Source: Callorhinchus milii (Eukaryota). Taken from it: 64,000 bases of DNA. Positions 1,338 through 60,309 of this stretch are shown here, piece by piece; position 1 is the stretch's first letter, and the number at the start of each line of letters is the position of its first letter. Location: positions 24,740,001 to 24,804,000 of the forward strand of contig NW_024704743.1 in NCBI RefSeq assembly GCF_018977255.1. The letters are read 5' to 3'. Made by a program: the position numbers and the translations under genes. The notes under the pieces were generated by a model. It saw nothing but the letters and a program-made list of their open reading frames with translations, was not told where the DNA came from and did not search any database.

Positions 1338-1943
1338 CTGCTGGTGGTTCCTTTGAATCTCCTTGTTTAGTTATATTTTTTATTGTAGAAACCACATCTT
1401 GTGATGGCTGATACACAATGTTAAAGTCAATAGTTTTGAATATAGATGGTGGGTATGAAAAGTGCCGAGTTATGAACAACTGATCTAAATCTGATTTCCC
1501 AACACCTATGGAAATAATTTTCACACCAACTTTGTTCAAAGATTCAAAAGGTGTTTTCACATCATCTTCTGATGGTGTGGCAGAAATGACCACTGCAATC
1601 TGAGGAACACCTTCATCCTTTCGACTTCCAGCAGATGGTATAAAGTAGTTTGAGCGAAGGTAATCAATAGCATGTCCTGTTTTTAGTCCTGCTCCACCTC
1701 TATAGGTAAACTTCTTCCTTACGTAATTCAGCACCTGGCCCTTTGTGACAAATTGATTCAAGAAGAACTCATTGTGCACGTCCCTGTTATACTGAGCAAG
1801 TCCGATTCTGTATTTATCCGCTCCAATATTCAGCTGGCTAATAGTTTGTGTAAGAAAAAGCTGTATCTGTTGAAACCCTATTTTTCCTATGTTCTGAGAT
1901 CCTTCGACCAGAAATACAACATCAGCAAAAAGCTCAGAAGGAC
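1338..1943 (-). CDS. Gene B VWA exon 7 (606 nt; second N7-like domain)
   Basis: ttgacag|GT CCT...GCA G|gtaatg; DVVFLVEGSQN...YRIGLAQY...AGSRKDEGVPQ. Confidence 0.93.
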
Positions 1944-4900
1944 CTGTCAATTTTAAATAATAAGAGTTAATTTTTAATTCTTAAGCTTTTAAATAGTCAG
2001 TAAGACTTACAAGTGACTAATCGTTATTGCCCAACTAATAACATAATTATCTATATCAGATATGACAGAGTCATTTCAATGAAAAGCAAACAGAAGGATT
2101 AAGAAATGTTGGCCACTTTGAAATATAGATTGAATTTCCATACATGCACATACCAGGATTTGTAAGACAAAAATACTTTGTAGAATATTATTTTCACATT
2201 TTTATCAGTGAAAACCTAATTTTTACATAAATATTACAGCACAGAGGTGGCCATTCAGCCCATCGAGCTTATACTAGTTTGGGCTCCTCCATTGAAGCTA
2301 TAAACTTCAATCCCAATTCCTTGTTCTTTCCCCATACAACAACAACAACTTGCATTTATATAGCACCCTTCATGCGGAGTAGCAACCCACAGTGCTTGAC
2401 AGTGGCAGAGTCTGATCACAAGCCAGGGAGAGGGAGGGGGGAAGAGGTGACCGTAAGCACGGTTAAGAAGCAGCAATGATTGTCTGGGTTCAAAGTAAAA
2501 AGAAAAACTGCACATTAAGTTAGCTTTAGGGTCTAATATATGACAATTTCAAACAGGCTTCTTAATAAGTAAGGAAATGTTCCTTACTAAATAATGATTT
2601 TAGAACTTGCTGCAGAATGATAGTCAAATTATTGTACAGAAACAGACCATTTCAGTCATTTAGAAAGCTTTAACACTCAGACGAAGTCAACATACCCAAT
2701 GTAGGAGTTCTACATAAATTATGGACAATCCTTCTTTTAATGTTATCTAAGTCAGCATAATTCTCGATACTAAATTTTCTGTCTGCTCCTCCAGCGATTT
2801 GTATCAGTTCACTATCAAATGCTCTTCCAACTCCAATGGCAAAAACATTGATCTGTTGTTGCCTCAAACCGTTTGCTGGGGCAACGACACTGTCTTGTGA
2901 TTGTCCATCTGTGATCACAAGAAGGTACTGGGGTACTCCTTCGTTCTTTCGACTCCCTTGAGTTGGTTCAAAGAAACTCTTCACAAATGTTAGGGCCTTT
3001 CCAGTGTTAGTTCCTCCTTCTAGCTGGCTCATTTTGTCAATACTATCATGAAGTGTACTTTGGCCAATAGATCTACTCAGGTAACTTTCTGCCTTTTGTT
3101 TTGTGCTGTACTGGCCCAATGCGAATTGGAATTTTCTTTCACCAATGTCAAACATTTTTGTGAAGTCTTTCAAGAATTTCTTCATAAGTTGGAAGTCACT
3201 TTTTGCGATACTTGACGATCCGTCGATTAGAAAAACAATATCTGCTTTGTCAAGCTCACATTCTGTGGGAGATAAAACACAAAATTACAATACTTTGGTT
3301 TTAAAAATTCTTTGTCAACAAAATGTCCATTTTTTGAAAAACAAAGAGCAGAACAATTTGTACCAAATGATATGTACCAAAAATCATTAAATGCTTTGAA
3401 GATACCATGATTTTATCTCAAATGGACTAAAGTATACCACTTAGGTTTTATAAATTGCTCACCTGGTTTAGAACCAACGCAGAGTATTTTAGAAATATTC
3501 TTTGATAAATATTTCAAGGCTTCAAAATCCTGAACCTTAAAGAACTTCTCTCGTGAACCTCCAATCTCTAGAAGTTCATCTTCATTGGCACCAGCTACAC
3601 CAACAGCATAGATATCAACACCGCTGCTTCTGATGGCTTTAGCTTCAGCTAGTAAGTCTGATTTGTCTGTAGCTTCCCCATCAGTTATGACTACTAAGAA
3701 CTGTGGAACCCCTTGTTGTTTTCGACCTCCTCCTACTGGATCTAATAGACTGGTTGCATGTTTGAGGGCCATTGCTGTGTAAGTCGATCCTCCTGCCTGT
3801 TGTATTCCATAAATTGCATCACCGACCTCAGTTTTTGTTGTGTATTCATCAAGCTTGAATATTGTTTGGGGTCGGTCACCATAGATAACGGCTCCGAACT
3901 GCACTTTGTCCACTGCAACATCAGAGCTGTTCACCACTGCTGCCATGAAGTGCTTCATGCTGTCAAACTGAGCAGGGCCTATACTACCTGACCCATCTAC
4001 AACAAAAACGATGTCTGCAACTTCTGCTTTCTGGCAATCTGTGAAGGGTAATATGCAAACAATGAATTAGACAACGCTCAAATGTCAACTGGTTGTTTTA
4101 AGCATTTTACACTATCCTGACACAATGGGAATAATTCTCTTCTGACCAACACATTTTTCAACCTCAGTGAGCAAGCTTGCCCATTTCTTTGCTTATTGGG
4201 CGCAGGCAATGTCCCACATACAGACAATTTTATTTGGGGCATTGCTGTCCAGGACACTGGGAGATACTCCCTACTCTTTTCCAATCATCCTGTGCGATAT
4301 TTTACATTGATCTGAACAGATGGGAACGTGAATTTTAATGTCTCATTTGAAGAACGACCCAATGCAACACCCCCCCAGCACTGTTTTGGACTAGAATGAG
4401 TTCAAGTCCCGACATGGCACTTAAATCCACAACTTTCTGACTCAGAAGCAAGAGCGTTACCAACTGAACCAGGTTGACAACAATAAACTGCATTTATATA
4501 GCACCTTTCACATTGGGAGGAAATCCCAAGGCACTGGACCGGTAAGGGTTTGCACCTGAGCTGGGGGTTGGATTTGGCGGGGATAGAAATTTCCATTTGT
4601 CTGCCTGGAGTGATACACACTGCTTACCTAATACCAGAGTGTATAATGGAACCTGGTTATGACATGATGGTTGGGATCCATAAAATCTCAACCTGTCTTG
4701 TTCATGATCAATGGGATCACTTGTCAGTGCTTCCACATGCACTGTGCACGGATGCACTTGGCCTTCTTGCTTCCCAAGTGCCAGCTGGCTCCCATGGTAC
4801 AAAAAAAAATGCTGTCGTCAGCCAACCACCAACATTACTTTCTGCATGCTGTGCATGCTGGCAATCTGATGCCCTGAAAGTCAGTCCTTCTTTAATACAG

Positions 4901-7900
4901 GAGATGGATGGCATGCAGGAAACAAATGGGACTTTATTTGGATTTTTTCATGATAATGTGTCAGGGTCCATATCCCAAACCAAGCCTGGGTTATGTACTA
5001 TATATTGTACTATTTGAGATGCAGATGAGCCAGATCCAAGACTTGGGGAAGGAACCCAGAGGATGCGTGAGGTGACTGCTGTCTAATTGAAAGTGGTTGG
5101 CAAAATGCCTCATTGCTTTTCAGGAATACTGTTTGATTATGAACATAGTCTTCAGGTGGATTGCCAGTGTATAATGTTGCATTTAATATGCACTCTCTTG
5201 ATTTTAAAACCAATATGGAAAAATGTAGCTTACCTTCCCAGGGACTGCAAATCTCCCATAAAATTTGCTTCTGTATTTCTGTTAGAGCATCAAAGTTTTC
5301 AATGTAATGCACTTTAGTCGGGGATCCTCCAATCTCTAAAAGCTGAGTCATATTGGCATTGAAGATACCGATGGCAAAAATAGTGATTCCTTTATCTCTT
5401 AAAGCTTTGGCAGGTGTAAGGACCTCATCCTGTGCCTCTCCATCTGTAATCACTATGAGGTACTGTGCAATATTAGGTCGACCTCCTCTTGATCCATGAA
5501 AGTAATCTGCAGTAAATGTCAGTGCTTGACCTGTTTCAGTTCCTCCTCCCAACTGTTGCATGCTATCCAATTCATGCTGTAGGTCAGGTTTCGCAGAATG
5601 CCTATTAAGCTCGAAAACCAGAGTTGGTGCAGATGAAAACTGTATTGCACCAATCTGAACTTTATCTGATCCAATGTTGACTTTCTTTACAAAAGAGGCC
5701 ATGAAAGCTTTCATTTTCATAAAGTCTTCAGAGTTTATGCTTCCTGATCCATCAATTAGAAAGATGATATCAGCCTTGTTCAGATCACTGCAGGCTAAAA
5801 GAAAAGAAATATTCACATGTTAGATTTTCAAGAAGTTCATCTGTACTCCGATCCTGTAATTGCATTTTTGTAAAAGAAAGAGGGCAGAGAGAAGGGAGAG
5901 AGAGGGAGAGAGAGCGAGACTGTGTGAGACTGTGTGAGAGATGGGGAGAATGTGTGAGAGAGAGGGAGTGAGAGAGGGGGAGAGAAAGAAACAGAAAGAG
6001 TGCGTGAGAGAGTCGAGGGAGAGAGTGATTGAAAGAGTTCGAGAGTGTGTGTGAGAGAGAGAAGTGAGAATGATAGAGAGAGAGAGGAGAGAGTGAAAAA
6101 ATAAAATCAAAGAGCAGAGAGAGAAGTGAGGGCAGTGTTTCATGGTTCACGATCAGGACAGATGATTAGAGTCTCCCATGGTCGCTGTGGGGGGCAGAAA
6201 GCTCCCTTTCCCCAGTGAAAAACCTCTCCACGTCCTTTAATCACCCCCACCACCACATCCTACCTCTGTGACCTCTTGACATGGCCATTCCCTTTGCCCA
6301 GCAAACGCCAGCTTGCTTCATGTCTCCCCACATCCCATCTGCCCCACCATTGGACATCCCTGCCCCGCCACCCAGTTCCCGTCCCCTGTCTGGATTTCCA
6401 TTCCTGGAGGCCCTCCAACTCCCTGCTCTTCCCCTCTTTCGAAGCACATCAAAACCTAACTCTCTGACCACTCTTTTGGTTATCTTTTCCCCTCCTCATC
6501 CCACCTCTCTATCAGCTCCCATCCCTAGCTCAGGTTCCAAGCCAGCAATGCCGAGGACTTTGAGATATCCTTCCAATATGAAAAAGATGCTGTGTAAATG
6601 TAATTATGTTTTTGGAAGGAAAACACAAAATATTGTTTTGGAAGGAAAACACAAAACAGAGTATCCGGTCTGCGGCAGCCAAAAGGGTGGACCACCGTGA
6701 TAGGTGATTATATGATTTATATAGATAAGAACATAAAAAATAGGATCAGGAGTAGGTCATTCGGCCCCTCGAGCCTGCCCCGCCATTTAATAAGATCATG
6801 GCTGATCTACTAACCGAATTCCATTTACCCGCCCTATCCCCATATCCCTTAATCCCTTTAGTTTTTAAAAATCTATCAATCTCAGTCTTGAATATGTTCA
6901 ATGACTGAGCATCCACAGTCTTCTGGGGTAGAGAATTCCATAAATTCATTACTCTCTGAGTGAAGAAATGTTTTGTCAACTTAGTCCTGAGACTATGACC
7001 CCTGGTTTTAGATTCTCCAACCAGGGGAAACAGTCTCACACTATCTGCCCTGTCAAGACCCTTAAGAATCTTATATGTTTCTATAAGATCACCTCTAATT
7101 CTTCTATATTCTAAAGAATATAGGCCTAGTCTACTCAGAATATAGGCTTAATCTACTCAGACTTATGCGAGTTTTACTGTAGTGTGAGATAGCTCAGTGT
7201 ATCTCTGTGAAAGCCCAACTGGAGTCTCAGTCACAGAATCAAATTCCAATTGTAAGGAGCATTCAAGCCTGATTTCTCTGCATGGTGCGCTTCACCAGTT
7301 TTACCTTTACTCAGAGATGAGAGTGCTACTCTTTCAGCCAACTGATATAAAAAAAACACAGTGACAATCTTCCTTTGAAAAGAGAGGAAGAACATTATAG
7401 CTTTCAAAAAGAATCCAAAGATTGTTATTTCAACACACTTTGGATTGTGTGTTAAAAAGTGACGTGCAGAGAGAAATTCCACCTAGGTCTCATTTTCAAT
7501 TTATGTAGTATTTCAATATCAGAATTTAGCAGATTCTTAAACACAGCCTTATTTTGAAGCCAGTTTTCTGCACTTTGTTTTAAAAAGAACTCCAGATAAC
7601 TGGTTCCAAAGAATTCAACAGTTTGACAAATTCTGGTCACTCTAAACCACTACGTACACAGACTATCTGTGACACACTTGCCTTTCCCAGGTGGAATTTC
7701 TCCTCACTTGTTTCTTTTACAAGCGTGAGGGACCTGGATTCCTCTTTAAATGTTAATTTCCTTTCCAAATCCTTGGTATTACAAGTATAGTAATGAATCC
7801 AGTTTTCTTCTTTATGACCAAAAGAAAGCATCAGATCAGAATCAGTTCTGGAATAGCTTATCAATCACAAGCCTGGAGGAAATGTAACATTTTAGCGTGT

Positions 7901-10900
7901 CCAGAAATTGCCGAATTGTTGAATTCATTCAACTTTGAAAAAAACTTCCAGAAGAAATGGTTTCAAAATTAATAATAATAATAATCCTTGCATTTGATAT
8001 AGCGCTTTTCACATCTTCCAGATGTCTCAAAGCGCTTCACAAAATATGCTGTCAAGTGAATTGACCGTATATTTGTGGGTGAAACGCGGCAGTCAATTGC
8101 ACACAGCAGTGTCACACAGACAGTGGTGGATTGAAAATGACCAATTTATTATTGTTTTTTTTTGGAGGTATTGTTATCAGGTGTGTGGAGTAAAAAAACT
8201 TGCCCAAGGATTCACCCTGCCTGCAATTGAACCCAGGTGTCTTGCTTGTAAGGCGAGTGCTCTAACCACTGGGCTACAATTTCTTAAATAATGTCTTAAA
8301 ATTAAGACAGTATTTAAGAAATTGAAAAACTCTGGGCACTGTGAAAGGTTAAGCAAATAGAGTAAATCTAGAGCAGTTATAATTTGTGTAAATGGACAAA
8401 AATTCTGTTGAGTACTTCATTCAACACTCCCCTCAGACCTGCACCAACCCAGAGCACCTGCTAACAATGTTACCCTTAAATCTTTTCTATTTGTCAATGT
8501 GTCACTAACTGGAGTGTACAAATCTAAGTGAATGGATTTGAACATGAATATGAGGATCTTGAAGTTGATCTGTTCAGTGATGGGAAACCAGTGGAGTCAG
8601 TCCAGAACTGGTGAGATGTTGGTACGGAGTTTGGTCCGGATCAGTATGCACATACACACTCTCTCTCTCCCTTTTCCCTCAATAATAATAATAATCTTTG
8701 CATTTGATATAGTGACTTATCCATAGACTGCAGATCATCCAGAACTCTACAGCCGATGTACTCTCCCATACCAGGCTCCGTGACACTATCACCCCCATTC
8801 TCGCCTGACTTCCGATCACACAGAGGATACAGTTCAAGATCCTGGTCCTCACCTTCAGAGCACTCTATGGCCTTGCTCCCTGCTACCTCTGCGACCTCCT
8901 AACCCCCTACCTTCCTGCTCGCTCCCTCCACTCAGGGGGCTCCAGCCTGCTTCACATCCCCCACCTCACTCGCCCCACTATTGGTGGGCAATCGGTAAGG
9001 AGACACACTTGCCTTTCCCTCATCTCCAGAGGGACTCCATGACACACTGCAGCCACAGGCAGTATTACCACTCCCCGTAACTCCATCCCCTCACCCCTGG
9101 CTGTTGTGCATGATGACGTTGATGTTATGCCCCGGGTAGGGAGAGCATGGAGAGCATTGGGGTGCACACATGCTGTGTTCAGTTTGAGGCAAACGCAGGA
9201 AACAAAAGTTTGGCCCGAAAGCAGCCAGTGTTGTTGTGGCATTATAAGTTACGCAGTGATTAATATGACTAGTGCATATAAATTGAAGTAAATTTAATTG
9301 GAAATTGACTGGGATTTGGGCGGATGTACAACTTAGGCAATTATATGATTTATACCCATCAAACTTATACGAGTTTTACTGGATAACTCCCGACACACAG
9401 GGTCTCAGATCTTGCATCCCAGAGCGCTGAATACCAGAGCATACAGGGCAAATGGGCAGAGGCAAACAGTGGGATGTCTCAAGGCTCTGTAGGATACCCT
9501 TACAGTTTTTGCATGTGTTAAAGATCTGGATTTGTGTTAACTTGGGGAGCTTTCTCATGGGGTGTTCTTGCACAAGGTGAAGACAAAAGCATAAACAGGA
9601 AAAATCTAGTGAAGAATCACCCACAAATAAATATTAAACATCCGAAGTTTGTAAAAATCTGAGTTTCAAAGTTCAACTCATACTGAATACTTAGAGAAGT
9701 TTGTTAGCCTCTTACCTGCTTTTGAACAGATGTCCCGCAGAAGATTGTCTCCCATACTTGTCAATGTATCAAAGTTATGAGTGTAAAATACTTTTTCAGG
9801 ACCATCTCCAATCACCAATAGTTCAGGCTCGTTAGCCTTACCCACACCTACAGCATACATAACAATTCCCTCTTGTCTTAATTGTTCAGCAGGCGCCATT
9901 ACATTATCCTGAGACTTTCCATCTGTAACGGTGATCAGAAAACGCTGTACTCTAACTCCGCGACTTCTTTCTGCCTCTCTGAAGTGAGTTTTCATGAAGC
10001 TGAGGGCTTGGCCAGTATTAGTGCTGCCTCTGATTTGACCAATCTTTTGAATTGCTAACTCTACCTCTGAGTTACTGGTATATTGAGTAATGTTAAATTC
10101 TGTTTGCGGTTTTGAAGCATATTGGGCAACACCAATCCGAACCTTGTCTGGACCAACACTGAAGCCTCTCACTACCCTCATCATAAACGTTTTAATGAGT
10201 CTGAAGTTTTCAGGTTTTATGCTCCCTGATCCATCGACCAGGAAAAAAATATCGGCTTCTTCAGTTTTAACACAACCTGAAAAACAGTGATGAAGCTTCT
10301 GTTAGCAAAAAACAAAAGTATGTTTAAAGCTCAATAATCACAAGGTAAGTACATTATTATCTTTCCAACAGCAATCTTCTATCAGACCAGTGGAGTTAAC
10401 ACAAAGCACATTAGCACCCATAAGAGTTCTTTGTCTTTTTAGTCTCTCTGCTACTACCATATTATATGGTAGTATCAGGGAGGCTGAAAAGGCTTTATTT
10501 CATTTCTGTATTATATAAAGCCTTATTTCTGACTTGGAGAGAAAGAGGGTGTTGCCAATGTGGCGAATGATCAGGAATGTTAATTCAGTGAAGCATACCA
10601 AAGCTTGATCTGGCTGGGTAAGCAAGTGTGTTAAAATGGGAAAGAATTTTCATAATAATGATTGTTAATTTGTGTAAACACGTTATGATTAAACACTGCT
10701 GGAGTGTAATAACGATATTAATAATAATAATAATCCTTGCATTTGATATAGCGCTTTTCATGTCGGGAGGACGTCCCAAAGCACTTCACAGAAGACACTG
10801 TAAAGTGAATTGACTGTAAATTTGTGGGCGAACGCGGCAGCCAATTGCGCACAACAATGTCCCACAAACAGTCGTAGATTGAAAATGACCAATTTATTAT

Positions 10901-13900
10901 TGTTTTTGGAGGGATTATTATTAGGCGTGTGGAGTAAGGAAACTTGCCCAAGGTTTCGCCCTGCCTGGAATTGAACTCAGGTCTCTCGCTTGCAAAGCAA
11001 GTGCTCTAACCACTGAGCTACAGGACTCCAATATTATCAAGCAAGGTAACTATTTATGTGGTTCAATGCTGGACCACAATCCCACACAGCCAGAGTATAT
11101 CTGTACACAGGAAGCCCATTTTCACAAATGTGCTTTGGTAGATGACAAGCTCAATAATCACTGGGTGAGTACATTATTTTTTCTCCAAAGGCATTTTTTC
11201 TGTCAGATCAGTGGAGTCACCACAAGCTGCAAATAAAAACGTGATAAGTCTTATTATTTCTAAATAAAGATTTTAGAGGACACAGTAGATTTAAATCTTC
11301 CATCTCCTCTCCTGAAAAATACAAGTATATAACGAATAATTATTCTGTTCAAATAATAAATTGCCATTCCTCACCTTGATGAAGCAGCTCTATCTGTTCA
11401 GTTACTATGGATGTCTGTTTAACGAGCTCAAAGCAAATCTTCTTCAGGATGTTGGTCCCATGTTTTTGTAACAATTCAAACTTAGGTAGGTTTGTCATAT
11501 AATTTTCAAAAGGATGTGAAGCAATACTTTGGAGTTCACTTTTGCTGGTGCCTATTGCAAAAACAGTAACACCAGCTTGTCGAAGAGCAGCCGCAGGGTA
11601 AGTCACATCATCCTGAGACTTTCCTTCAGTGATCACCACCGCAATTTGTGGAACTCCTTGATCTGCCCGACCACCAGCAATTGAAACAAAGCTATTCTGT
11701 GTTGTATAGTCAATCGCAGCTCCAGTAAGAGACTCTCCTTTCCTGTAAGGTATGCTTTTCAAGCGCTGGAGCATATCAGTCTTGTTTAGAGGTGTATCAA
11801 GATAAAACACTGGCATTGTGATCGTACTATACAGAGACAAACCCACTCTCACTCGGTCCATCTCAATGTCAAATGCACTGATAACATTGGACAGAAACTC
11901 TCGGATCAGCTGAAAGTTGGTTTCTCCGAGGCTACCCGATCCATCCACCAGGAAAATGATATCAGCCACTGAGTAAGCCTGGCACACTAAAAAAAAGACA
12001 TTATAAATCCATGGTAAGTACATGACAATATGTCTTCAAGTACAATGCTTCCTGAAACAAAATAACTTGGTGGTGTTCAATGAAGAAATAGAAAGAGAAA
12101 AGTATCAGATTTTAGCCCTCAACAACAGATAAACACTGAAAAAATAATCTAAAAATATGCCAGGCACTAGGAAAAAACCACCAACTTGATAGTTTACATC
12201 AATGTTACTTTAAATTGCTTTTAAATTGGGAACACTGCGTATTTTACCACCCAGATCTCGTTTCATGTTTTCAGGGAGGATGGAGCAAGGTGGAGGGATT
12301 CCTGTATGTATAGAAAAGGAATTTTCTTAAAAATCTGAATTTGGCATTTTTTGTCACACCCTATACAGAGAGTGGCAAAGGATTGTGTAAAGTAAAATAT
12401 TACATATTCAACACACTTTCCAATAGCCACATTTTTTCATAGCACTAGAGGGCAAATGCATTTCTGATTCTGTCGTTTCACTAATATTTGGTGAAGAGTT
12501 TAGTCATGGCAATCCCACAGTTGGGGAGGATTCACCAAATCAAAAGTTTGATCAGTCCCAACAATGTGAGGTTAGAGCCTGACTGGAGTCCCATATTGTA
12601 GAGTCCAAAGAGACGATAATAAAGACCAATGCCTTTGTATTTCTTTACACCATCACAGGCAGTTACATATTATACTACTACTACTAATAATAATAATAAT
12701 AATCTGTGCATTTCATATAGTATCTTAACACTTTGTTGAGACGTCTCAAAGTGCTTCACAGAATATATAGATTGACTGTATTTATTTTTGTGGGCAATAT
12801 GTGGCAGCTAATTGCACACAATAGTGTGCGACAAACAGTCAAGGATTGAGTGACCAAATTATTATTATTTTTTTGGAGGAATTATTACTCCCCGGAAAGC
12901 GATCTGCTAATCAACTAACAATTGGATTCCTACTTACTGCTGGGTGAACAGAGAATTAGTATCATAAAAGGCACAAAGATCAGGGAGCTTTCCGGGGAGT
13001 AATAATTCCTCCAAAAAAATAATAATAATTTGGTCACTCAATCCTTGACTGTATGTTTTACATCCAATACACAAAAACATAAACGATAAACATGAATTCG
13101 GGCCTTTCACTATCATAAAAGTTTGTCATTTGCCTTTTAGACAGCAAAGAAGATTGGCTAGCTACATCAACACTGTTGCTACAAGAGCAGAGGCTAGGTA
13201 CTCTGTGAAGAGTCACTCACCTTCCAACTCCTCAATTGCTCTCCAAATCTACAAGGGTCAAGTCAGAAAATGGAATACTCACCACTTGCCTTAATGGGTA
13301 CAGCTAAAACAACACTTGAGAAGATCAACATCAACCAGGAAAAAGAGGTTCACTTTATTGGCACCGCAGCCTCTCAAGTCAAAATTCACTCTTACACTCA
13401 CTGACGGACTGTGGCTACAGTGTATACTACCCATAGAATGCGCCTTGAGACGTCCTCCCGACCTGAAAGATGCTACACAAATGTAATTGTGCATTGTATT
13501 GTAGTGCACGACAGCAACTCACCAACATGTCTTCAACAGCACTTCTCAGCCACAAAACCTTCAACATCCAGGATGTCATGGGTGGGTGAGATCATGGGGA
13601 TGACATCACTCCTAAGTTCTCCTTCAAGTCACTCCTGACTTGGATGTATAATCATTATTCTTTCATCTTTGCTGAGTCAAAATTCTGGATCTGGTAATTC
13701 CCTATCCATCAGCACTGTGGGAGTGGCGTCGCCACAAGAGCTTTCGCCAGTTAATAGAGAAGATTCACCACGACCTTCTCAGGGCAACCAGGAAAGAACA
13801 ATTACATGCTGACTTTCCCAGTGTTTCCCACATGTAAAAAGCTCCCGAGGTGATGTGATCCAATGTCTAACAAAGGAAGCATATTTCTAAGGTTTGCTTA

Positions 13901-16726
13901 CAATTTGGTGAAACGTTTTACATTATTATGATTTTTACACCACTCGAATAGGGACATCCAAATGGGAAACATGAGTGAAAATTGGCTGTCTAACTTTAAT
14001 TGTTTTGTGATTTGAGTAATAGCATGTAGATAATACACTGTGAACAATTTAAAGGTGGAAGAGAAAAAAGGAACTTGGCATTACCTGCTGGTCTTTGGAA
14101 CTCTTTACGTATTGTCGATTTCTTGTCATATTTTTAATGACGCCTATTACATCAGCAGATATGAGTTTGCTATTGCTAAGTGAAGGGTACTGGAGAACAA
14201 ATGGTGCCTTTGGAAGAAAGGCTATCTTTTCCTGCTCCCTCAAGTCTGAGGTCCGCACACCGATTGAGAGAACCTTGATACCGTCGTTTTTCAAGGCTGT
14301 GGCAGCTAAGCTCACATCATCCTCTGACGGTGCAGAAGTGATTATTACTGCAAGCTGAGGAACACCTTCATCTTTTCGGCTTCCGGCGGACGGCGTGAAA
14401 AAGGTTTTGTGGAGAAAATCGAGACCGCGGCCTGTTCTTAGACCCATGCCATTCTTAAATTTGTAATTCTTCTTCAGAAAATTCACAACATTATTCTTGT
14501 TTTGAAATTTATTCAGTAAGAACTCAGTTCGGGCGTCACCATTGTACTGAGCCAATCCAATCCTGTATCTGTTTTCTCCGATTTCCAGCTTGCTGATAAT
14601 TTTTAGAAGGACTGTTCGTGCAAGCAAATATTCTGAACGTCCCAACTTTGAAGATCCATCAACCAGGAACACAACATCACCAACATGTTCATCAGGAGCT
14701 GTTAAATTATAACAATAAAAAGTCAATACAACAATCTGCATTTACATAGCTCCATTCACATTCAAGAGCATCTCAGAGCGTTACAGAAAAGATGAACATT
14801 CTATAATATCTTTTTAAGTGTACTGACAGTTCTAAATAAAAGAAAATTGCTGTTTCAAAATGCTTCAGAGTATTTACTGTAAAGTCACTGTATTTTTTTT
14901 AGGTAAATGTGGCAGCCATTTTGCACACAGCAATGTCTCACAAAAAGCCATGTCAAATTTTATTTGGGGGTTATTTAGTGAGGACACGGGAAGAAACTCC
15001 CTTCTCTTTTCGACACCCCCCCCCCCCCCCGTCTAGCCAGACTAATGAGTAAAGCTCTGATATGGCGAGCCAGAATTTCCGGCTATCAAGTTTAATTACA
15101 ATGCCTTTACCGGCATTGTAATTCTTTGATTCCTGCAAGCAGAAGGAATAAGTTGTCTTCTACACATGGGATTCAAACATTCTGAGTCAAAGTTGACATC
15201 CCTGGTTGCTGTGAAGACTAGCAAGGACAGAGAGTGCAGCGTTGGGGCACTGGGAGAGTTGGGCCAGCAAGAATCTACAAGTGGAATTAAAAACTAAAAA
15301 AAACATTTTGGTTTCATGACTGGGCCAACTTGGTTGCAATTCCAGATACCAGTAAACCAGGGGGTTTACTGTAAATTGGGGGGAAAAAAAAGAAACGTTA
15401 CACAGTGTTCTGTGCAAGATTAAAAGGTTGATTTTTTTAAATTTGAAACAGTCTCAAAACTCTCAAATAAAGAATGTGAGATGTAAACCAGATTTCACAT
15501 TCAGCAGTCTGAGATTTGACCCAATTAATAGCACAATTGTCTCTGGCAATATTTGTTCAAACTCCCAAGTTACTTTGTCAAGGCTGATGCCCATTACAAT
15601 ACTGGAGAGCACTGCATTGGAGGAGGTGCCGTCTCTCGGATTAGATTGTGAATTGCGATTCTGTCCGCCTGGTCAGGTATGCAATAATGATCCCATAGCA
15701 GTAGCAGAAAAGAAAATGGGGCCTTCAGATAAATTAATCATGCAGTTCATGTGTTACCATTTGAGGAGAGAGAAACTATTATCTGTCTCAGATCAGCTAG
15801 CTTGACTTCATCACTAGAAATGTGAGGATTGAATATTCTGGAAGTTTCCTTGTTAACCTGGGAGACGAAGACATTTTTAACTTTCCTGAGGTGATGAATG
15901 GATCTGGTAAATTTCTGGTAGACTACAGATGGCTTTTCTCATTCCATGCTTTTATTCTGCTCTAATGACTTGTCATCTCTCTGCTCCTGAGACACCTACA
16001 TTGAACCTCATGCATCCATCCTCAGTCTTCTCCTTATCTACATGCTTTCTCTTGTCAACAGACATGGTGTCAGCATCCACAAATAGCAATGACACCCAAC
16101 CCGCACCTCTCTGCCTGCACCCTCAATTCCAGAACCACTGCTGTACTGACTAATTGCCTGGTCTGGATGAGCTTTAATTTCTGTCAGCAAGAGCTCATCC
16201 ACATTTCCACAGCTTGTATCCTCTCTCACACAAGGCTCTTTGTCATCACCCCATCCCTGCTGGGCTCTATTGAACTCTGTACCCCAGGGGATCACAAGAG
16301 TTTCGCAATACATTCTCTAGCAGGCTTGATGCCTTGGCGACTGCCAAACCAGCCCTGTGTTCTCCAGCGATTGGCAAGCGGGTTTGTCGTCTGTTACACC
16401 CCTTCACTCAGAAGGAGGGACATTAAGCTCTGCACATCTTACTGAAGCTTACAGATAGCTACCCCTCATTGATTAAAATAACCCACACACAGGTACAAAC
16501 AGTTCAAATTAAGACCATTTTAAAACAGCAGCTTACATTTATAACAACACCCCTTACGCAGAATAGCGTGCCGGAACCTTTAAAACCTTTCCATGTAGAC
16601 GGGTCATTAATACAGCAAGAAAAAACAGTAATGTAAATAAAGTTAATTACCTTTTTGTTGGGAGTTGACCACAAATGCACTTGCTGTCAGAAGGAATAAA
16701 GCCACTGTTACTCTCCACATTTCCAT
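1338..16726 (-). CDS. COL6A4/COL6A6-like: Gene B (multi-exon, probably 3'-partial): collagen VI alpha-4/alpha-6(VI)-like chain, signal peptide + 7 N-terminal VWA domains
   Basis: Signal-peptide exon plus seven 561-614 nt VWA exons with GT/AG ends, D(I/V).FL(V/I)DGS.S, T.TG.A and (V/I)ITDG motifs. One phase anomaly at the first VWA exon. Confidence 0.9.
2696..3262 (-). CDS. Gene B VWA exon 6 (567 nt)
   Basis: cccacag|AA TGT...TTG G|gtatgt; CELDKADIVFLIDGSSS...VITDGQSQD. Confidence 0.95.
3463..4038 (-). CDS. Gene B VWA exon 5 (576 nt)
   Basis: cttcacag|AT TGC...CCA G|gtgagc; CQKAEVADIVFVVDGSGS...VITDGEATD. Confidence 0.95.
4200..4471 (-). mobile_element. Ancient DeuSINE/SacSINE1-like relic (others near 15590-15720 and 22860-23175)
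   Basis: CACAACTTTCTGACTCAGAAGCAAGAGCGTTACCAACTGAACCA head-like motif plus a Deu-like body; recognised from memory. Confidence 0.5.
5234..5794 (-). CDS. Gene B VWA exon 4 (561 nt)
   Basis: cttttag|CC TGC...GAA G|gtaagc; ADIIFLIDGSGS...VITDGEAQD. Confidence 0.95.
5875..6130. repeat. Degenerate (GA)n / (TC)n low-complexity tract
   Basis: About 255 bp purine-rich GA/GT microsatellite upstream of the VWA exon 4 acceptor. Confidence 0.9.
6727..7140 (-). mobile_element. CR1 LINE 3' fragment
   Basis: TRGHSL...FFTQRVMNLWNSLPQ...FKTEIDRFL plus the CR1 3'UTR and tail. Confidence 0.9.
7972..8277 (-). mobile_element. tRNA-derived SINE
   Basis: Same head, body and (ATT)n tail as the other copies. Confidence 0.88.
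9716..10276 (-). CDS. Gene B VWA exon 3 (561 nt)
   Basis: ttttcag|GT TGT GTT...GCA G|gtaaga; CVKTEEADIFFLVDGSGS...TVTDGKSQD. Confidence 0.95.
10720..11029 (-). mobile_element. tRNA-derived SINE (short subfamily)
   Basis: Full length, near-identical to the 934-1251 copy. Confidence 0.9.
11375..11986 (-). CDS. Gene B VWA exon 2 (612 nt)
   Basis: tttttag|TG TGC CAG...CAA G|gtgagg; ADIIFLVDGSGS. Confidence 0.94.
12670..12955 (-). mobile_element. tRNA-derived SINE, long subfamily, 5'-truncated
   Basis: Tail and body match; head missing; followed by an inverted duplicate of part of its body. Confidence 0.8.
12835..13052. repeat. Perfect 66-bp inverted repeat (12835-12900 / 12987-13052)
   Basis: Arms are exact reverse complements, with an 86-bp spacer. 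Confidence 0.92.
13150..13830 (+). mobile_element. Decayed non-LTR retrotransposon 3' end (L2B/Crack-like group)
   Basis: Degenerate IYKGQVR..MEYSPLA.MG....TL.K....Q motif of RT C-terminal regions; family assignment from memory. Confidence 0.6.
14085..14698 (-). CDS. Gene B VWA exon 1 (N7-like; 614 nt, phase 1-0, apparently 1 nt short)
   Basis: tttaacag|CT CCT GAT; DVVFLVDGSSK...YRIGLAQY...AGSRKDEGVPQ; donor CAG|gtaatg. Confidence 0.9.
16651..16726 (-). CDS. Gene B signal-peptide exon MEMWRVTVALFLLTASAFVVNSQQK (exon 16651-16750 includes 24 nt of 5'UTR)
   Basis: ccctttttggtag| acceptor, strong Kozak CCACCATGG, hydrophobic core, AAA G|gtaatt phase 1 matching the next exon. Confidence 0.9.
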
Positions 16727-30064: not shown

Positions 30065-30237
30065 CTAGTAAGACTTAAGGCATAAGGCTTCACATTCCTC
30101 TTCAGTGTCAAATCTGTTTCCATTTCCTTTGCAGCCACCGTACCAAAATCGTGTGCAAACTTGCAGCTCTTTGTCAAAGTACCATTTAAGATCATAATCC
30201 TGGCAAGCCCCTTCATCTTGATTCAGTGCACACACAT
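30065..30237 (-). CDS. Gene A terminal exon: Kunitz/BPTI domain (endotrophin/C5-like)
   Basis: tgcttccag|[65 protein letters not shown]; 6 Cys and the F.YGGC.GN.N.F signature. Confidence 0.95.
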
Positions 30238-33200
30238 CTGGAAGCAAAAATAAGGCAAGAGGTTTACTAAGCAAGAATAGGCCCAGCTAAATTTATACTG
30301 CATCTCCATAGTTAAAAAAAACTAAAGAACATTCAGTATTCACACCACAAGAAATACACTGTAAAGTTGGGATGAATAAAAAAATGATCGGGAAAAAAGG
30401 AAAAGTCTAAGACTACAAATCCCTAGAATTTCGGAAATCCCGTTTCTGTTGTTGAGTTTAGTACCCATTATGGTGAGGGGCTGTTAGTTGTGGGGAAATG
30501 GAACACTTTCCCACTTTGTATACTCAGTTATTATCATCATTGCTTGCTCAGGTATAACAACAAGAAATTACAACAACAACAACTTGGATTTTTATAGTGC
30601 CCTCCACGCCGGAAGGCGTCTCAGAGTGCTTCACAGTAACGGATTCCAGGACCAAGCCAGGGGGAGTGGGAGGAAAGTGACCGAAGGCGCAGTCGAAAAG
30701 AAAGGTCTTCACCAGAGACCTGAAAATAGGAAGAGAGGGGGGAGTGAGATGAAGGGAGTGAGGAAGGGAGTTCCAGAGCCTGAAGGCACGGCCGCCAAGG
30801 GTGGAGTGGAGGACTCGGGGGACGAGGAGGAGGCCAGACCCGGAGGAACGAAGGCAACGAGCACTGTTTTGAGGAGAGAGGTCAGAGAGATTGGAGGGTG
30901 CAGAGGAGTGGAGGGATTTGAAGACAAGGGTGAGGATCTTGAAGTCGATCCTCTCTGGGATAGGCAGCCAGTGCAGTCTGGCAAGGACTGGGGTGATCGG
31001 GGAGCAGAGTTTGGTGCGGGTGAGAATGCGGGCGGCAGAGTTTTGAATAAACTGGATTTTATGAATGGTAGTGGAGGGAAGGCTGGCGAGGAGGGCGTTA
31101 GAGTAGTCCAGCCGAGAGGTGACAGAGGCATGGACCAGGGTTTCAGCGGCTTTTGGAGAGAGGTATTGGCGGAGACGGGTGATGCGTCGCAGGTGGAAGA
31201 AGGCGTTGCTGGTGAGGGACCGGATGTGGGGAAGGAAGGATAATTGGGGGTTGAACCTGACGCCTAGGTTGCGTACGGGTTCGGAGAGTTTTAAGGGGAG
31301 GTCAGGTAGGTGGAGGAGGTGAGAACCGTGAGATTTTAGATGTTGACGAGAGCCAAAGAGTATGGCTTCCATCTTGTCAACGTTAGCTGAAGGAAGTTTG
31401 CACTCATCCAGCCCCTGAGATCTGACAGGCAGGCTGACAGAACATCAGGGGACTGGGGGTCGCAAAGAGAGGTGGAAAAATAGAGTTGGATGTCGTCCGC
31501 ATATATGTGGAAATGTACTCCATGTCTACGGATGACATCTCCAAGAGGAAGCATGTAGATCAGAAAGAGTAGGGGGCGAAGGATGGATCCTTGGTACCCC
31601 ACAGGTGACCGGGTGAGATCGGGAGGAGAAGCCATTTATGCAGATGTACTGCTGGTGGTTTGTGAGGTAGGACTCGAACCAGGCGAGTGTGGTCCCACTG
31701 AGGTGGATGATGGAGGAAAGGTGGTGGAGGATGGCGTGATCGACTGTGTCGAACGCGGCGGAGAGGTCCAGGAGGACAAGGAGGCAGAGGGAGCCCTGGT
31801 CACAGATAGAGAGGATGTCGTTTATGACTTTCAAGCACAGTCTCTGTACTGTGGGCAGAGCGGAAACCAGACTGGAGGGGTTCGAAGAGGGAGTGGGAGG
31901 AGAGGTGACACGCCGACGTCACTTTGTGAATCGCACCACCCCATCACGTACCCCCCTGCACTCTCCTGACTCCGCTCCTGACAAAATTACATTTGTATAG
32001 CGCTTTTCATGTCGGGAGAACATCCCAAGGAGCTGGACAGTTAGGGATTTGAACACCAGCAGGGGTTTAGGATCAGGCGGGGTGGAGGGTGAGGAGGGTA
32101 GGGATAGGAGGATGGCCGGATACGCGCCCGAAAAGAAGGATCTTGAAGGCAGCAAAGGACGAAGCAAGGCAAAGCGATTGTAGGATGGAGTTCTTAAGGG
32201 TGGGGGCAGAGAAGCTGAAGGCCCGACCGCCAATGGTGGGGCGGGCCAGGTGGGGGACATGGAGCAGGCCGGAGCCTGCTGAGCGGAGGGAGCGGACAAG
32301 TTGGTATGGGGTTGGTTAGCAGGTTATAGAGGTAGGAAGGAGCAAGGCCTCGAAGGTGAGGACGAGGATGTTGATCTCTATCCACTGGGGGGGATGGGGA
32401 GCCAGTGGATAACAGTGTATAGCATGGTATTCACATACAAAATTTGCCCATAAAATATACAGTTAATTCACTTTACAGTATATTCTGTGAAGCGCTTTGA
32501 GACACCTCGAAGACGTGATAAGACCCTATGTGAAATGCAAAATTATTATTATTATTATTATTAAAATACACAGTCACTACACTTTTCAGTATATCGTGTG
32601 AAGTGCTTTTAGACACCCTCCTGACATGGAAGGCACTATATCAAATGCAAGGATCAAATGCAAGGATTATTTTAAGGAAAATTGTGACAAAGATATGCAG
32701 TCCTGGCATATAACCAAACTATTCATTCTATTCATTGACCTGAATAAAAAATTATCCAGCAATCGCATTTCAATTTGTAATTCATATTAATTCTTCAAAT
32801 ATATTATTGCATTTACCTTCACAGTGTATTTCGGGAGCGACTATGCATTTATATAATAATCCTTGCATTTGATATAGCACCTTATCATGTCTTTGAGACG
32901 TCTCAAAGCACTTCACAGAATATAATAATAATAATCCTTGCATTTGATATCGCGCTTTTCACGTCGGGAGGACGTCCCAAAGCGCTTCGCAGAACACACT
33001 GTAAAGTGAATTGACTGTATATTTTGTGGGCGAAACGTGGCAGCCAATTGCACACAGCGGTGTCCCACAAATAGTCATGGATTGAGTGACCAAATTATTA
33101 TTATTTATTTATTTTTTGGAAGGGATTATTACCCCTGGAAAAGTGATCCGCCAATCGACTAACAGCCGGGTTCCTACTGAATGCTAGGCGACAGAGAGGC

Positions 33201-36200
33201 ATGTGGCGTAAGGAAACTTGCCCAACGTTTCGCCCTGCCAGGAATTAAACCCAGGTCCTCTCGCTTGCAAGGCGAGTGCTCTAACCACTAGGATACAGGA
33301 TTCCAAGATCAAGGTCAATAACACTTCCAACATTAGTTTTGTACTAATTTCCAATTACCTTCACTCTGCATTTCCTTTTCAGTGTCAACCATTTCGCCTG
33401 AAAGTGAATACACATGAAAATAAATGAATCATGCACAAATAGAGTAAGTTTTATATTACATTTTGAATTAAGTTTGTTTCAGTTTGGCAAACAAATTTCT
33501 CATCATACCTACCGTAACCATTATCTGTCGACATTTCTGTTTCTCTTTCAGAATCTTCAAATTCTTTTTCCTCTTCAAATTCTTCCTCTTCAAATTTCTC
33601 TTCTTCAAACTCCTCCTCTTCAAACTCCTCCTCTTCAAACTCCTCCTCTTCAAACTCTCTCCCTTCTTCCTCAGTTCCCCTATGGATGAATACAAGTTTA
33701 AGCTAGCAGTATCCAAGAATTCAACCAGATATCCGGTGAGATGTTCAAATAGGATTAAATGTAATATTAATAGTGATGCAGATAATAAAAAAACATACCT
33801 TTTTTGTTCAGAAATTGCATTTGATACCTTTGTGATCCCCTGGAATAATCTCGCTGACTGACATTCTCTTCGTAAAGCTTGAGGTGGATATGCGTTGATC
33901 CCAACTATACAAAGTAAATGTCTATTAATATATTTTCTGATTTTGTAAGTATAGTTCAGTATTGCTAATCCCTTTTGGATGTCAAATATCAAATTGTTAG
34001 CTTCACATTTGACTGAATTAATGTTTTACATTTTCCATGGGATATCTAGAATAAAGAAATACTTTATGTTTTCGTAAACCATTTTTGTGTTTTAGTGTAT
34101 ATTTTTTTGACTGTATACAGATGTATATTTACAGATGTGGCAAAAAGAAGATCTGATAATATTTTAAATGCAGTGAAACATTACTTACATTTATAAAATA
34201 ATAATAGTAATAATATTTTTTCTGCAAGTGAGTAGTTTGGCCAGTATCAAAATGCTGTAAAATCTGGAATAATGTAGTAATTAATTGAGCAGGCTTCAGT
34301 GTTTTACCATCATGAAGTCAGTGGTTCACAGGTCAGTAGGATGAAATGTTTGCCGAATAATAATAATTATTGTTGATAAATATCAAATTGTCAAAAAAAC
34401 ATATAAACTATAATTACTGTCTCTGAACCACCCCATACACCACATTGACAAACTAATTTGATGATAATCTGGAGTAACATTGCTCCGGATTACGCCAGAG
34501 AAAAAAAAGATTTAAATGTTATTAGCTTTTGTACAACTTTGCTCTTTCAATAAAATGGTACTTTATGTAACTTGTCATGTAAATTGTCATGCTCTCCAAT
34601 GTTGCACTTACGTGTCAGACTTTTCAAAAAGGCCCGAGTAAACCTGTGTGCGTATCTCATTTCAGGCTCAAGCAGTCTACCAAGTCGAATTAGATGATGG
34701 TCAAAAGGGAAACTAACAAGATCTTCCAAGTCAGTCTCCACAGTATCCATCCCAAAAGAGAATATAAAGACAGAGAACCCTTGACATCGCGCTTGTAGTG
34801 ACGCAGCCAATAACTTGGCTTTGTCCCAAACACTAGTGTCTCCTGCAACTAGTAGAAATAGAACCTTGTAGCGTCGTGGGGTTGGCGCAGTTGCAAAGAC
34901 ATTGTTCAAAGTCCATTCAATAGCATGGCCAACACCAGAAGAGCCGTCTAATTGATCGAAGGATTGCTGGATGTACCTCTTCATTGTACTTTTACTTGAA
35001 AAGTTAAAAAATCCAAATTCCAGGTGAACAGGCTGTTGGCCTGACCTAGGCACGTAATCACGTGGTACATGTTGCACAAGAGCAACTCGAGCACGATTAT
35101 CAAAAGCCTTTGGGTTTCGGGACGTCACAAACTCATCGAGTATCGAGCTTAGAAAGATCTTCAGCCTTTCGAAGTCTACAGATCTCACATTGCTTGAGCC
35201 ATCAACAATGAAAGCTATGTCCATGCTGATGGGAATCGGAGGTGGGCGGAGGACTTGCTGGCATCGTGGGTTTGGTTCACACATATCTGCAAAAGACGAA
35301 TAAAGTAAAATTTTTATGTTCTAAAATAATAATGTGTGGTTCTCAGTAAATCCTATTTATGGGGTGATTTTAGATAGATCCTAGTTTAAGAGTACGACTG
35401 GAAGAGAGAGTGTGTTGAACCCTGGCAAGGACTATTGATTCTCTAATAAGATTAGAAATTCCAAAAGTCACAGAACGGATTCTGTTCCAAAATCAGCTCT
35501 TGGATGGAAGGGGTGGAGCTCAACATCCTTAAAGCTAATTTTATGCTTCATTCATTGCATCAATTCAACATGAAAAATGGCTAAAAGTGAAGCATAATAC
35601 TACAGTCTAAAATCTCAAGCTTCCATGTGAGACTGCGGAAGAATGCGCAGTATGTGCGAACTATCAATTGGGAAGCAATCAGACTGAATTCTCTGAAATG
35701 GATATCAATTACAATCAGTTGTGTATTATGAACTAGAAGTAAATGACAGCTTTGATCTAGGCCTTCATCTGTATGGCTGCCGTCAATTATATTTAAAAAT
35801 AGGTAGGATGCCAATATTTGAAAACAATTTGAAAGATTTCATTAAAGCAGTGAGGTAAGATCAGGTGGATTTCTGCTGAAAACTGAACCAGTTTGGTTAA
35901 ATAGTTTGGGATGCCTGAAGCAAAAAAAAAATGAAAAGAGAGATTTGTAGTGTTTTGCATAAATGCTTTCGATTCTCCCAAATATAATTAAACAGAACTG
36001 TAGAATATTCACCAATTCTCACATTTCCCTTATCCAACCCTGGTTTGCTGCCCTTCCCTGGGTCAGCATTCTGCATCACAATAGCAAAGAAAGTATTATT
36101 TGCCAAAGAGTATTTGATCCTCCTGCCTTAAAAAAAGAATAATAATGATCCTTGCTTTTCATACAGTACCTTATCACGTCTTCTAGATGTCTCAAAGCAC

Positions 36201-60024: not shown

Positions 60025-60309
60025 CTGTGAAAACATGATTTGTAAATAGCGTTTATTTCATAACATGTAGGAGCAGGAGTAGGCCATTTGGCCCTTCGAG
60101 CCTGCCCCGCCGTTCAATCAAGGCTGATCTTCTAATCTAACTCCAGCTAATAACATAACCCTGCCTTATCGCCATATCCCTCAATCTAAAACATACAATA
60201 GCATGATAAATATTATCATGTGGAAACGAAGTAACAAGAAGAAAAAAGTATGGCAATTAGCCACATGAAACAGCTGTGGACCACTAACACAAATCTGTTA
60301 AATCTGTTA

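Follow-up and report, generated by a model that had tools for sequence, protein, structure and literature searches.

How many VWA domains precede the collagen helix of the chain encoded by gene B, and does its seventh VWA exon restart an array that has already run its course? The question arises from a 64,000-nucleotide (nt) stretch of the Callorhinchus milii genome (contig NW_024704743.1), the whole of which we call the window, where gene B lies on the minus strand with seven VWA exons (14698-1338; table below) in tandem with its upstream paralog, gene A (XP_042202096.1), a nine-N-domain alpha4-type chain. An earlier note on this DNA proposed that exon 7 is a second N7-type domain, that the N7-N2 block restarts there, and that the array may comprise at least 13 N-terminal VWA (N) domains. 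Sequence comparisons supported this reading of gene B and gave its architecture as a signal peptide, six VWA domains of types c to h, six further VWA domains of types c to h, and N1, giving 13 N domains where seven are usual. A signal peptide and tandem N-terminal VWA domains are as expected of a collagen VI long chain. Gene B is probably one transcription unit that encodes a long chain of the alpha4/5/6 family of collagen VI, with a second block of single origin that predates the split between chimaeras and sharks.

Exon 7 is far closer to exon 1 than to exons 2-6, as the earlier note had stated. The two translations share 43% identity (global score 416) and are each other's best match among the seven exons, with exon 2 as the runner-up in both cases (36% and a score of 270 for exon 7; 33% and a score of 248 for exon 1). 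Their DNA sequences align at 67% identity over 415 nt (E 3e-28). Both lack the leading Cys of the other exons, as had been observed, and also the closing Cys of exons 2-6, and they do share the donor that had been ascribed to them, CCAGCAG followed by GTAATG. The motifs previously listed for the pair are present, but most of them, including the broken DxSxS, are family-wide features of type c rather than specific to exons 1 and 7.

Domains were typed with nine N-domain profiles (a-i, where i is N1) built from 77 nine-domain chains (2690-2830 residues long, each with eight VWA domains of typical form ahead of the helix), some of which recur among the rows typed later. The profiles were applied to 277 proteins and then to 83 more. 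Exons 1-7 of the window typed as c, d, e, f, g, h, and c, respectively, with a margin for exon 2 of only 21 bits above type b. In a domain tree of 75 rows, exons 1 and 7 fell in one clade (Shimodaira-Hasegawa-like approximate likelihood ratio test [SH-aLRT] 99) that also held the N7 of alpha5/alpha6-type chains, the N5 of a mammalian alpha4-type chain, and the N7 of nine-domain chains. All seven exons were placed within alpha4/5/6 type clades, which contained no alpha3-type N domains. The domain-level phylogeny that had been proposed as a check therefore sides with N7 and not with N1; the N1 domains sit on a separate long branch, which rules out exon 7 as an N1. The label "N7-type" is apt for alpha5/alpha6 but not for mammalian alpha4 models, which have type c at N5. 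Likewise, exon 7 is of the type proposed for it, but numbering outward from the helix makes exon 7 the true N7 and exon 1 the N13.

For exons past window position 1, the source was public protein models rather than DNA. Exon 7 matched two C. milii models at 100% in the search, XP_007887976.1 (P0004) and A0A4W3GBD9 (P0005). Both join exon 6 to exon 7, and they differ from the window at two residues, which correspond to contig variants at positions 1931 and 3149. P0005 reads h-c-d-e-f-g-h-i followed by the start of the helix. The N6-like domain expected after exon 7 is thus present in this protein model, and the block does restart as proposed, running on through N5-, N4-, N3-, and N2-type domains to N1. 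The divergent N1 (type i), which lies outside the window, stands directly before the helix in P0005 and P0278, the models in which the block of exon 7 continues. Window exons and C. milii model together give a count of 13 N domains, in agreement with the suggested minimum. The C. milii RefSeq model XP_042188233.1 retains Cys 50 of the helix, a residue with a role in oligomer linkage, and ends after 250 helix residues.

Four of the 13 listed sequencing runs were used as transcript or DNA evidence, comprising X1-X3 (from the set X1-X4, taken to be RNA) and X5, which yielded DNA contigs. Single contigs of X1 and X2 splice exons 1-6 and end at 2924, X3 does the same in two contigs, and the spliced contigs reach 34, 72, and 297 nt upstream of exon 1. 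All seven VWA exons have phase-1 acceptors and are symmetric in phase 1, and exons 1 and 7 are bounded by AG and GT. Exon 7 matches the Pfam VWA model (E 1.5e-34) and is covered by contigs of X3. One X3 contig of 562 nt places its letters 1-354 on exon 7, up to 1941, and its remaining 208 nt correspond exactly to the length of 2694-2901. The 2-nt GT offset at this putative exon 6/7 joint is the one that the aligner also gives at the exon 2/3 joint. On the basis of this exact length and the matching offset, we infer that the contig is spliced from exon 6 to exon 7. The word share of X1 was 0.45, compared with expected values of 0.452 with exon 7 and 0.329 without it, although intronic repeats would raise either. 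The DNA contigs of X5 cover 1228-2091 and 2355-2901; one stops at 2924 and another ends at 2901. The intron before exon 7 is in phase and, as had been claimed, without a signal-peptide exon: a profile built from nine family signal peptides reached at most 0.3 bits within its 752 nt, which rules out a hidden signal exon. The same profile gave 54 bits on the real signal exon, a positive control only, as that peptide is among the nine. X3 contigs also break within exon 7 (window 1343-1617), where one ends at 1588 and another, of half the depth, spans 1343-1591; the break could reflect an allele or a further similar copy.

Exon 1 measures 614 nt in the window and is out of frame with exon 2. All four of the four runs aligned carry one extra base at 14118/14121, which restores 615 nt and an open frame, indicating that the base missing from the window is an assembly error and ruling out exon 1 as a genuine frameshift or pseudogene. 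A phase-0 acceptor at 11978 as a rescue of exon 1 was also rejected; contigs use 11986. The false frameshift of the window may be part of the reason that gene B is represented among public C. milii models by late-starting or fragmented entries.

Judging from protein models of other species, the doubled block is probably ancestral to cartilaginous fish and not private to the C. milii genome. The h-to-c junction was detected in 11 of the 277 proteins typed first (two from C. milii, eight from sharks, and one from an eel) and in four of the 83 typed second, all from sharks. Nine shark species are represented overall, all of them galeomorph. Complete versions of both blocks occur in Scyliorhinus torazame, Cetorhinus maximus, Carcharodon carcharias, Mustelus asterias, Hemiscyllium ocellatum, Chiloscyllium punctatum, and C. 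plagiosum, with the last three carrying an extra leading type c and hence 14 N domains. The Stegostoma model is without the first type c, and the S. canicula model is of low quality. The helix of seven shark chains comprises 336 residues in four, 333 in two, and 302 in one GenBank model, with the position of Cys 50 kept. C-terminal VWA domains were found in shark models, and S. torazame has 14 Pfam VWA matches as well as C-terminal VWA domains and a Kunitz domain. Shark models annotated as "collagen alpha-6(VI) chain-like" (among them XP_072365905.1, XP_060706236.1, and XP_078098451.1) contain the same doubled block at 46-51% identity over the junction, which makes them probable orthologs of gene B; their database names are silent on the doubled architecture.

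Phylogenetic reconstruction was conducted under LG+G4, without a mixture model. The first type-c tree comprised all 44 type-c rows then collected; for the later type-c tree, its approximately unbiased (AU) test, and the later single-domain and helix trees, 18-20 named rows, either near-duplicates or distant, were dropped (leaving 39 rows for type c), and a tree of domains c, d, and g (c+d+g) comprised 27 rows. In the type-c trees, C. milii copy 2 grouped with shark copy 2 (support 93/88 with 44 rows; 99/99 with 39 rows) and C. milii copy 1 with shark copy 1 (95/91 and 86/73, respectively), and the c+d+g tree recovered the same two pairings (83/97 and 98/98). Forcing the two C. milii copies together was rejected for type c (39 rows; AU p 0.0145) and for c+d+g (p 0.043). 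The first position of the metal-ion-dependent adhesion site (MIDAS) is Glu in the internal copy of C. milii and of five of the seven sharks and Asp in all first copies, and type-h tails are block-specific across species. We favor a block that appears to have doubled once, before chimaeras and sharks diverged.

Several observations weigh against reading gene B as a single 13-domain chain with one ancient doubling. The RNA nature of X1-X4 is a guess, although the contigs are spliced; the exon 6 to exon 7 splice comes from one contig whose exon 6 piece was read by length; and X1 and X2 have a depth of 0 at 1931 in exon 7. Among the C. milii models retrieved none is full-length, and none of gene B reaches the C-terminal VWA domains. 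The shark evidence consists of automated gene models, and no 13-domain model from rays, Heptranchias, or Pristiophorus, nor from squalomorph sharks generally, was found among the matches listed (120 of 219 and 120 of 1927). The first AU test, on 44 type-c rows, did not reject a grouping of the two C. milii copies (p 0.061), and the c+d+g set was chosen after the other, single-domain trees had been seen. Trees of type d (87-89), type f (77-87), and type h (97-99) unite the C. milii blocks, as do one of the two type-e trees (79) and a six-domain concatenation (0.78).

The grouping of C. milii blocks in types d, f, and h and in the concatenation is probably due to gene conversion, which is evident in type h and between exon 4 and gene A. 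Exon 6 and the N2 domain (second type h) of P0005 share an identical run of 30 residues with the same bounds as the exon 6 stretch given in the table. Position 2924 is where contigs of all four runs stop, and 2901 is the end of a DNA contig; a stretch common to a second locus would account for breaks near these positions. Together, the protein identity and the contig breaks point to a probable recent gene conversion with the second type h. A further sign of gene conversion is the 75% identity between exon 4 and the corresponding domain of gene A, which includes an identical run of 24 columns.

If exons 1-6 and exon 7 belonged to two separate genes, 752 bp apart and fused by annotation pipelines, the indirect nature of the exon 6-7 splice, the missing depth of X1 and X2 at 1931, and the fragmentary state of C. 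milii models would all be expected. However, the intervening intron contains no signal exon, and in block 1 type h is followed by no N1, helix, or stop exon. In addition, DNA contigs of X5 lie over 1228-2091 and 2355-2901, the X3 contig fits a splice to the letter, and the h-to-c junction is common to nine shark species. Assembly duplication, the other form of this explanation, would leave near-identical copies, whereas those observed are 45-70% identical, which rules out a recent or assembly duplication. We regard both forms as very improbable. Somewhat easier to entertain, though still unlikely, is that the 13-domain chain is only one splice form and that block-skipping transcripts yield a seven-domain chain. 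The phase symmetry of the exons would permit such skipping, X1 and X2 lack depth at 1931, and publications exist on alpha3 N domains being alternatively spliced, to judge from a reference title in the accessible part of PMC6934817. Yet the X3 contig has a depth of 9.9 on exon 7, near the 12-14 seen on exons 1-6, the word share of X1 fits the presence of exon 7, and no exon-skipping joint appears among the 15 joints listed (5951 more exist), a list dominated by repeats and without exon joints.

With respect to origin, the groupings of C. milii blocks described above would follow from independent doubling in chimaeras and galeomorph sharks, as would the lack of a 13-domain ray model among the matches listed, and doubled arrays are seen repeatedly among teleost models (e.g., eel P0077, whose copies are near-identical). 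We nevertheless consider independent doubling improbable: it is rejected by both AU tests on type c (39 rows) and c+d+g, residues specific to the junction are common to C. milii and sharks, and conversion is evident from the identical runs in type h and between gene A and type f. A fusion of two tandem seven-domain paralogs is possible, if somewhat doubtful, and concerns origin only, being compatible with a single ancient 13-domain chain. It would have deleted the N1, helix, and C-terminus of the first gene along with the promoter and signal exon of the second. Consistent with a fusion, other genes of the cluster include a seven-domain gene (in C. milii, bamboo and epaulette sharks, and rays) and a short c(d)-i gene, both starting with a signal and type c, and in the 39-row type-c tree the seven-domain gene is the sister of copy 2 (80/80) and the short-chain gene that of copy 1 (77/82). 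Furthermore, the C. milii blocks are no closer to each other (54% identity) than block 1 is to gene A (53%). Nevertheless, these sister supports are weak, a clade of copies 1 and 2 is not rejected for type c (AU p 0.10), and such a clade appears in the best c+d+g tree (60/51) and in the type-d tree (88); placing block 2 with the seven-domain gene gave an AU p of 0.31. That the chain is an ancient chimera of two distinct collagen VI genes in tandem, retained from before the chimaera/shark split, is accordingly a tentative suggestion that we would place a little below fusion in general. The single doubling before that split remains the reading that we carry forward.

In COL6A5 and COL6A6, and in the seven-domain chains of gar and sturgeon, a signal is followed by c-d-e-f-g-h, N1, and a 336-residue helix with Cys 50; the domain order up to N1 is that of gene B, whose exons 1 and 7 share a clade with the N7 of COL6A5/COL6A6. 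Gene B differs in having the c-h block twice and 13 rather than seven N domains, seven being the norm as stated in the available portion of PMC12354898. The alpha4/5/6 chains are described as having seven. The shark 13-domain chain also has a Kunitz domain, unlike COL6A5/COL6A6. Cartilaginous-fish paralogs group together in trees and not with bony-vertebrate alpha5/alpha6, which does not support orthology of gene B to alpha5/alpha6. In a tree of the helix and C-terminal region, the 13/14-domain, seven-domain, and short chains of sharks form one group (100/100), with weak deeper placement. Given these differences in domain number and tree placement, we file gene B as a cartilaginous-fish paralog within the alpha4/5/6 family, although it would most likely work in the manner of an alpha5/alpha6-type long chain.

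The nine-domain, non-mammalian form of COL6A4, represented here by gene A, shares the c-h block and N1 with gene B, and presumably also the helix and Kunitz domain, but it opens with types a and b, which are absent from gene B, and has a single c-h block. Mammalian alpha4 models (P0014, P0015, and P0017) read a-b-c-d-e-f-i, whereas mammalian alpha5/alpha6 models (P0020, P0023, and P0026) read c-d-e-f-g-h-i. These chains use different subsets of the nine-type set, and equal N numbers are therefore not homologous between them. COL6A3 resembles gene B in its long N-terminal VWA array and includes the best solved-structure relatives of exon 7 (9HAN chain C, 6SNK, and 4IGI). However, its domains fall outside the c-h type clades, and its arrays consist of runs of similar domains, with no six-type block repeated. 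Array lengths of 13 to about 21 N domains are found in many alpha3-like models from sharks, rays, and teleosts.

Since the VWA exons are symmetric in phase 1, repeating a block by an intron-to-intron crossover would keep the frame. We propose that the block was repeated in frame by ectopic crossing over from the intron that follows type h to the one that precedes type c, and that the blocks would then have diverged to their present identity of about 54%, with patchy gene conversion. The assembly, shape, and ligands of the gene B chain can be predicted from mammalian chains. As with other long chains, it would most likely pair with alpha1 and alpha2 via its predicted 336-residue helix. Its N-terminal array may project from the microfibril bead as a flexible arm of about twice the length, bearing two sets of binding surfaces, in which the two type-c domains, without an intact metal site, would probably act as metal-free spacers. 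In the available parts of the sources, mammalian long chains are described as assembling as alpha1-alpha2-alphaX with N1 in the bead and outer N domains that are probably flexible (PMC12354898), mouse long chains as assembling with alpha1 and alpha2 into microfibrils and mammalian N regions as monomeric, C-shaped, and 15.6-18 nm long (both PMC4777857), and VWA termini as lying at opposite ends, which permits beads-on-a-string arrays (PMC3919171).

The doubled-block chain is apparently an undescribed, old variant of a known matrix protein and not an error. No description of a 13-domain cartilaginous-fish chain was found in the literature searched, whose coverage largely leaves out subscription papers, including zebrafish long-chain work, and the part of a collagen VI review at hand does not mention sharks (PMC11007232). 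Independent whole-gene duplications of long-chain genes are known, according to the accessible part of PMC6934817. Novelty is tempered by the fact that automated models already hold the architecture and that long alpha3 arrays are common in fish, and gene B involves no new fold or chemistry. Cartilaginous fish have a history of about 400 million years. A whole-block repeat appears to have been kept throughout it, beside paralogs with nine, seven, and two to three N domains, and such retention implies selection on array length. The paralog series provides natural constructs for the role of the N-terminal arm in microfibril assembly and ligand binding. Were the chimeric origin true, it would form a natural series of 2-3, 7, 9, and 13-14 N domains on one 336-residue helix that would test the effect of array length, including the stated need for at least five N domains in microfibril assembly.

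Features of gene B and gene A in the window, with positions numbered from the first letter of the window
Feature	Position	Strand	Domain and type	Remarks
Signal-peptide exon	16651..16726	-		25 codons + 1 nt, phase-1 donor; identified by translation and donor
Exon 1	14085..14698	-	VWA N13, type c (N7 type of alpha5/alpha6)	No intact MIDAS motif (DGSSK)
Exon 2	11375..11986	-	VWA N12, type d (N6 type)	Clade support 97; present in spliced contigs of X1-X3
Exon 3	9716..10276	-	VWA N11, type e (N5 type)	Profile typing, tree, spliced contigs
Exon 4	5234..5794	-	VWA N10, type f (N4 type)	Profile typing, tree, spliced contigs
Exon 5	3463..4038	-	VWA N9, type g (N3 type)	Profile typing, tree, spliced contigs
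Exon 6	2696..3262	-	VWA N8, type h (N2 type), closes block 1	Joined to exon 5 in spliced contigs of X1-X3
Stretch of exon 6	2872..2953	-		82 nt, apparently with the same DNA sequence as the second type-h exon, which lies beyond the window
Intron at block 1/block 2 junction	1944..2695	-		752 nt, phase 1 to phase 1, no signal exon
Exon 7	1338..1943	-	VWA N7, type c, opens block 2	MIDAS broken, Glu for Asp (EGSQN)
Gene A, 3' half	30068..60042	-	Helix exons, C-terminal VWA domains, Kunitz domain	tblastn of P0274

Other chains in the matches show a range of N-domain numbers. Seven-domain c-i chains occur in C. milii (P0280/P0398), Hemiscyllium (P0282), rays (P0281/P0399), sturgeon (P0283), and gar (P0405), and the grouping of the gar and sturgeon chains with mammalian alpha5/alpha6 indicates that this branch predates tetrapods. 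Short chains with two to three N domains (a signal, c, sometimes d, and N1) were identified in Mustelus (P0034), Narcine (P0035), and Hemitrygon (P0279/P0396), and the two measured have a full 336-residue helix and Cys 50. Their N-domain number falls below the five or more said to be necessary for microfibril assembly in the available portion of PMC12354898. Five teleost alpha4-type models (P0077, P0086, P0104, P0161, and P0208) have doubled N arrays with different breakpoints. Some may be fused annotations, and the near-identical copies of eel P0077 reflect either a recent duplication or an assembly artifact. Most of P0036-P0059 are shark and ray models of 3500-5000 residues with 17-25 alpha3-like VWA domains and no collagen helix detected, and are either split col6a3 models or products of a separate VWA-only gene.

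Introns of gene B hold many copies of a short, high-copy repeat with a tail of TTA repeats, along with fragments of long interspersed nuclear elements (900-1250, 8000-8280, 10700-11030, 12700-12960, and others), and such repeats could have seeded ectopic crossovers. In gene A, tblastn identity was mostly 94-100%, with four short pieces at 70-79%, and an acidic repeat of EEEEF-like units at 33300-33560 precedes the Kunitz exon (30238-30068).

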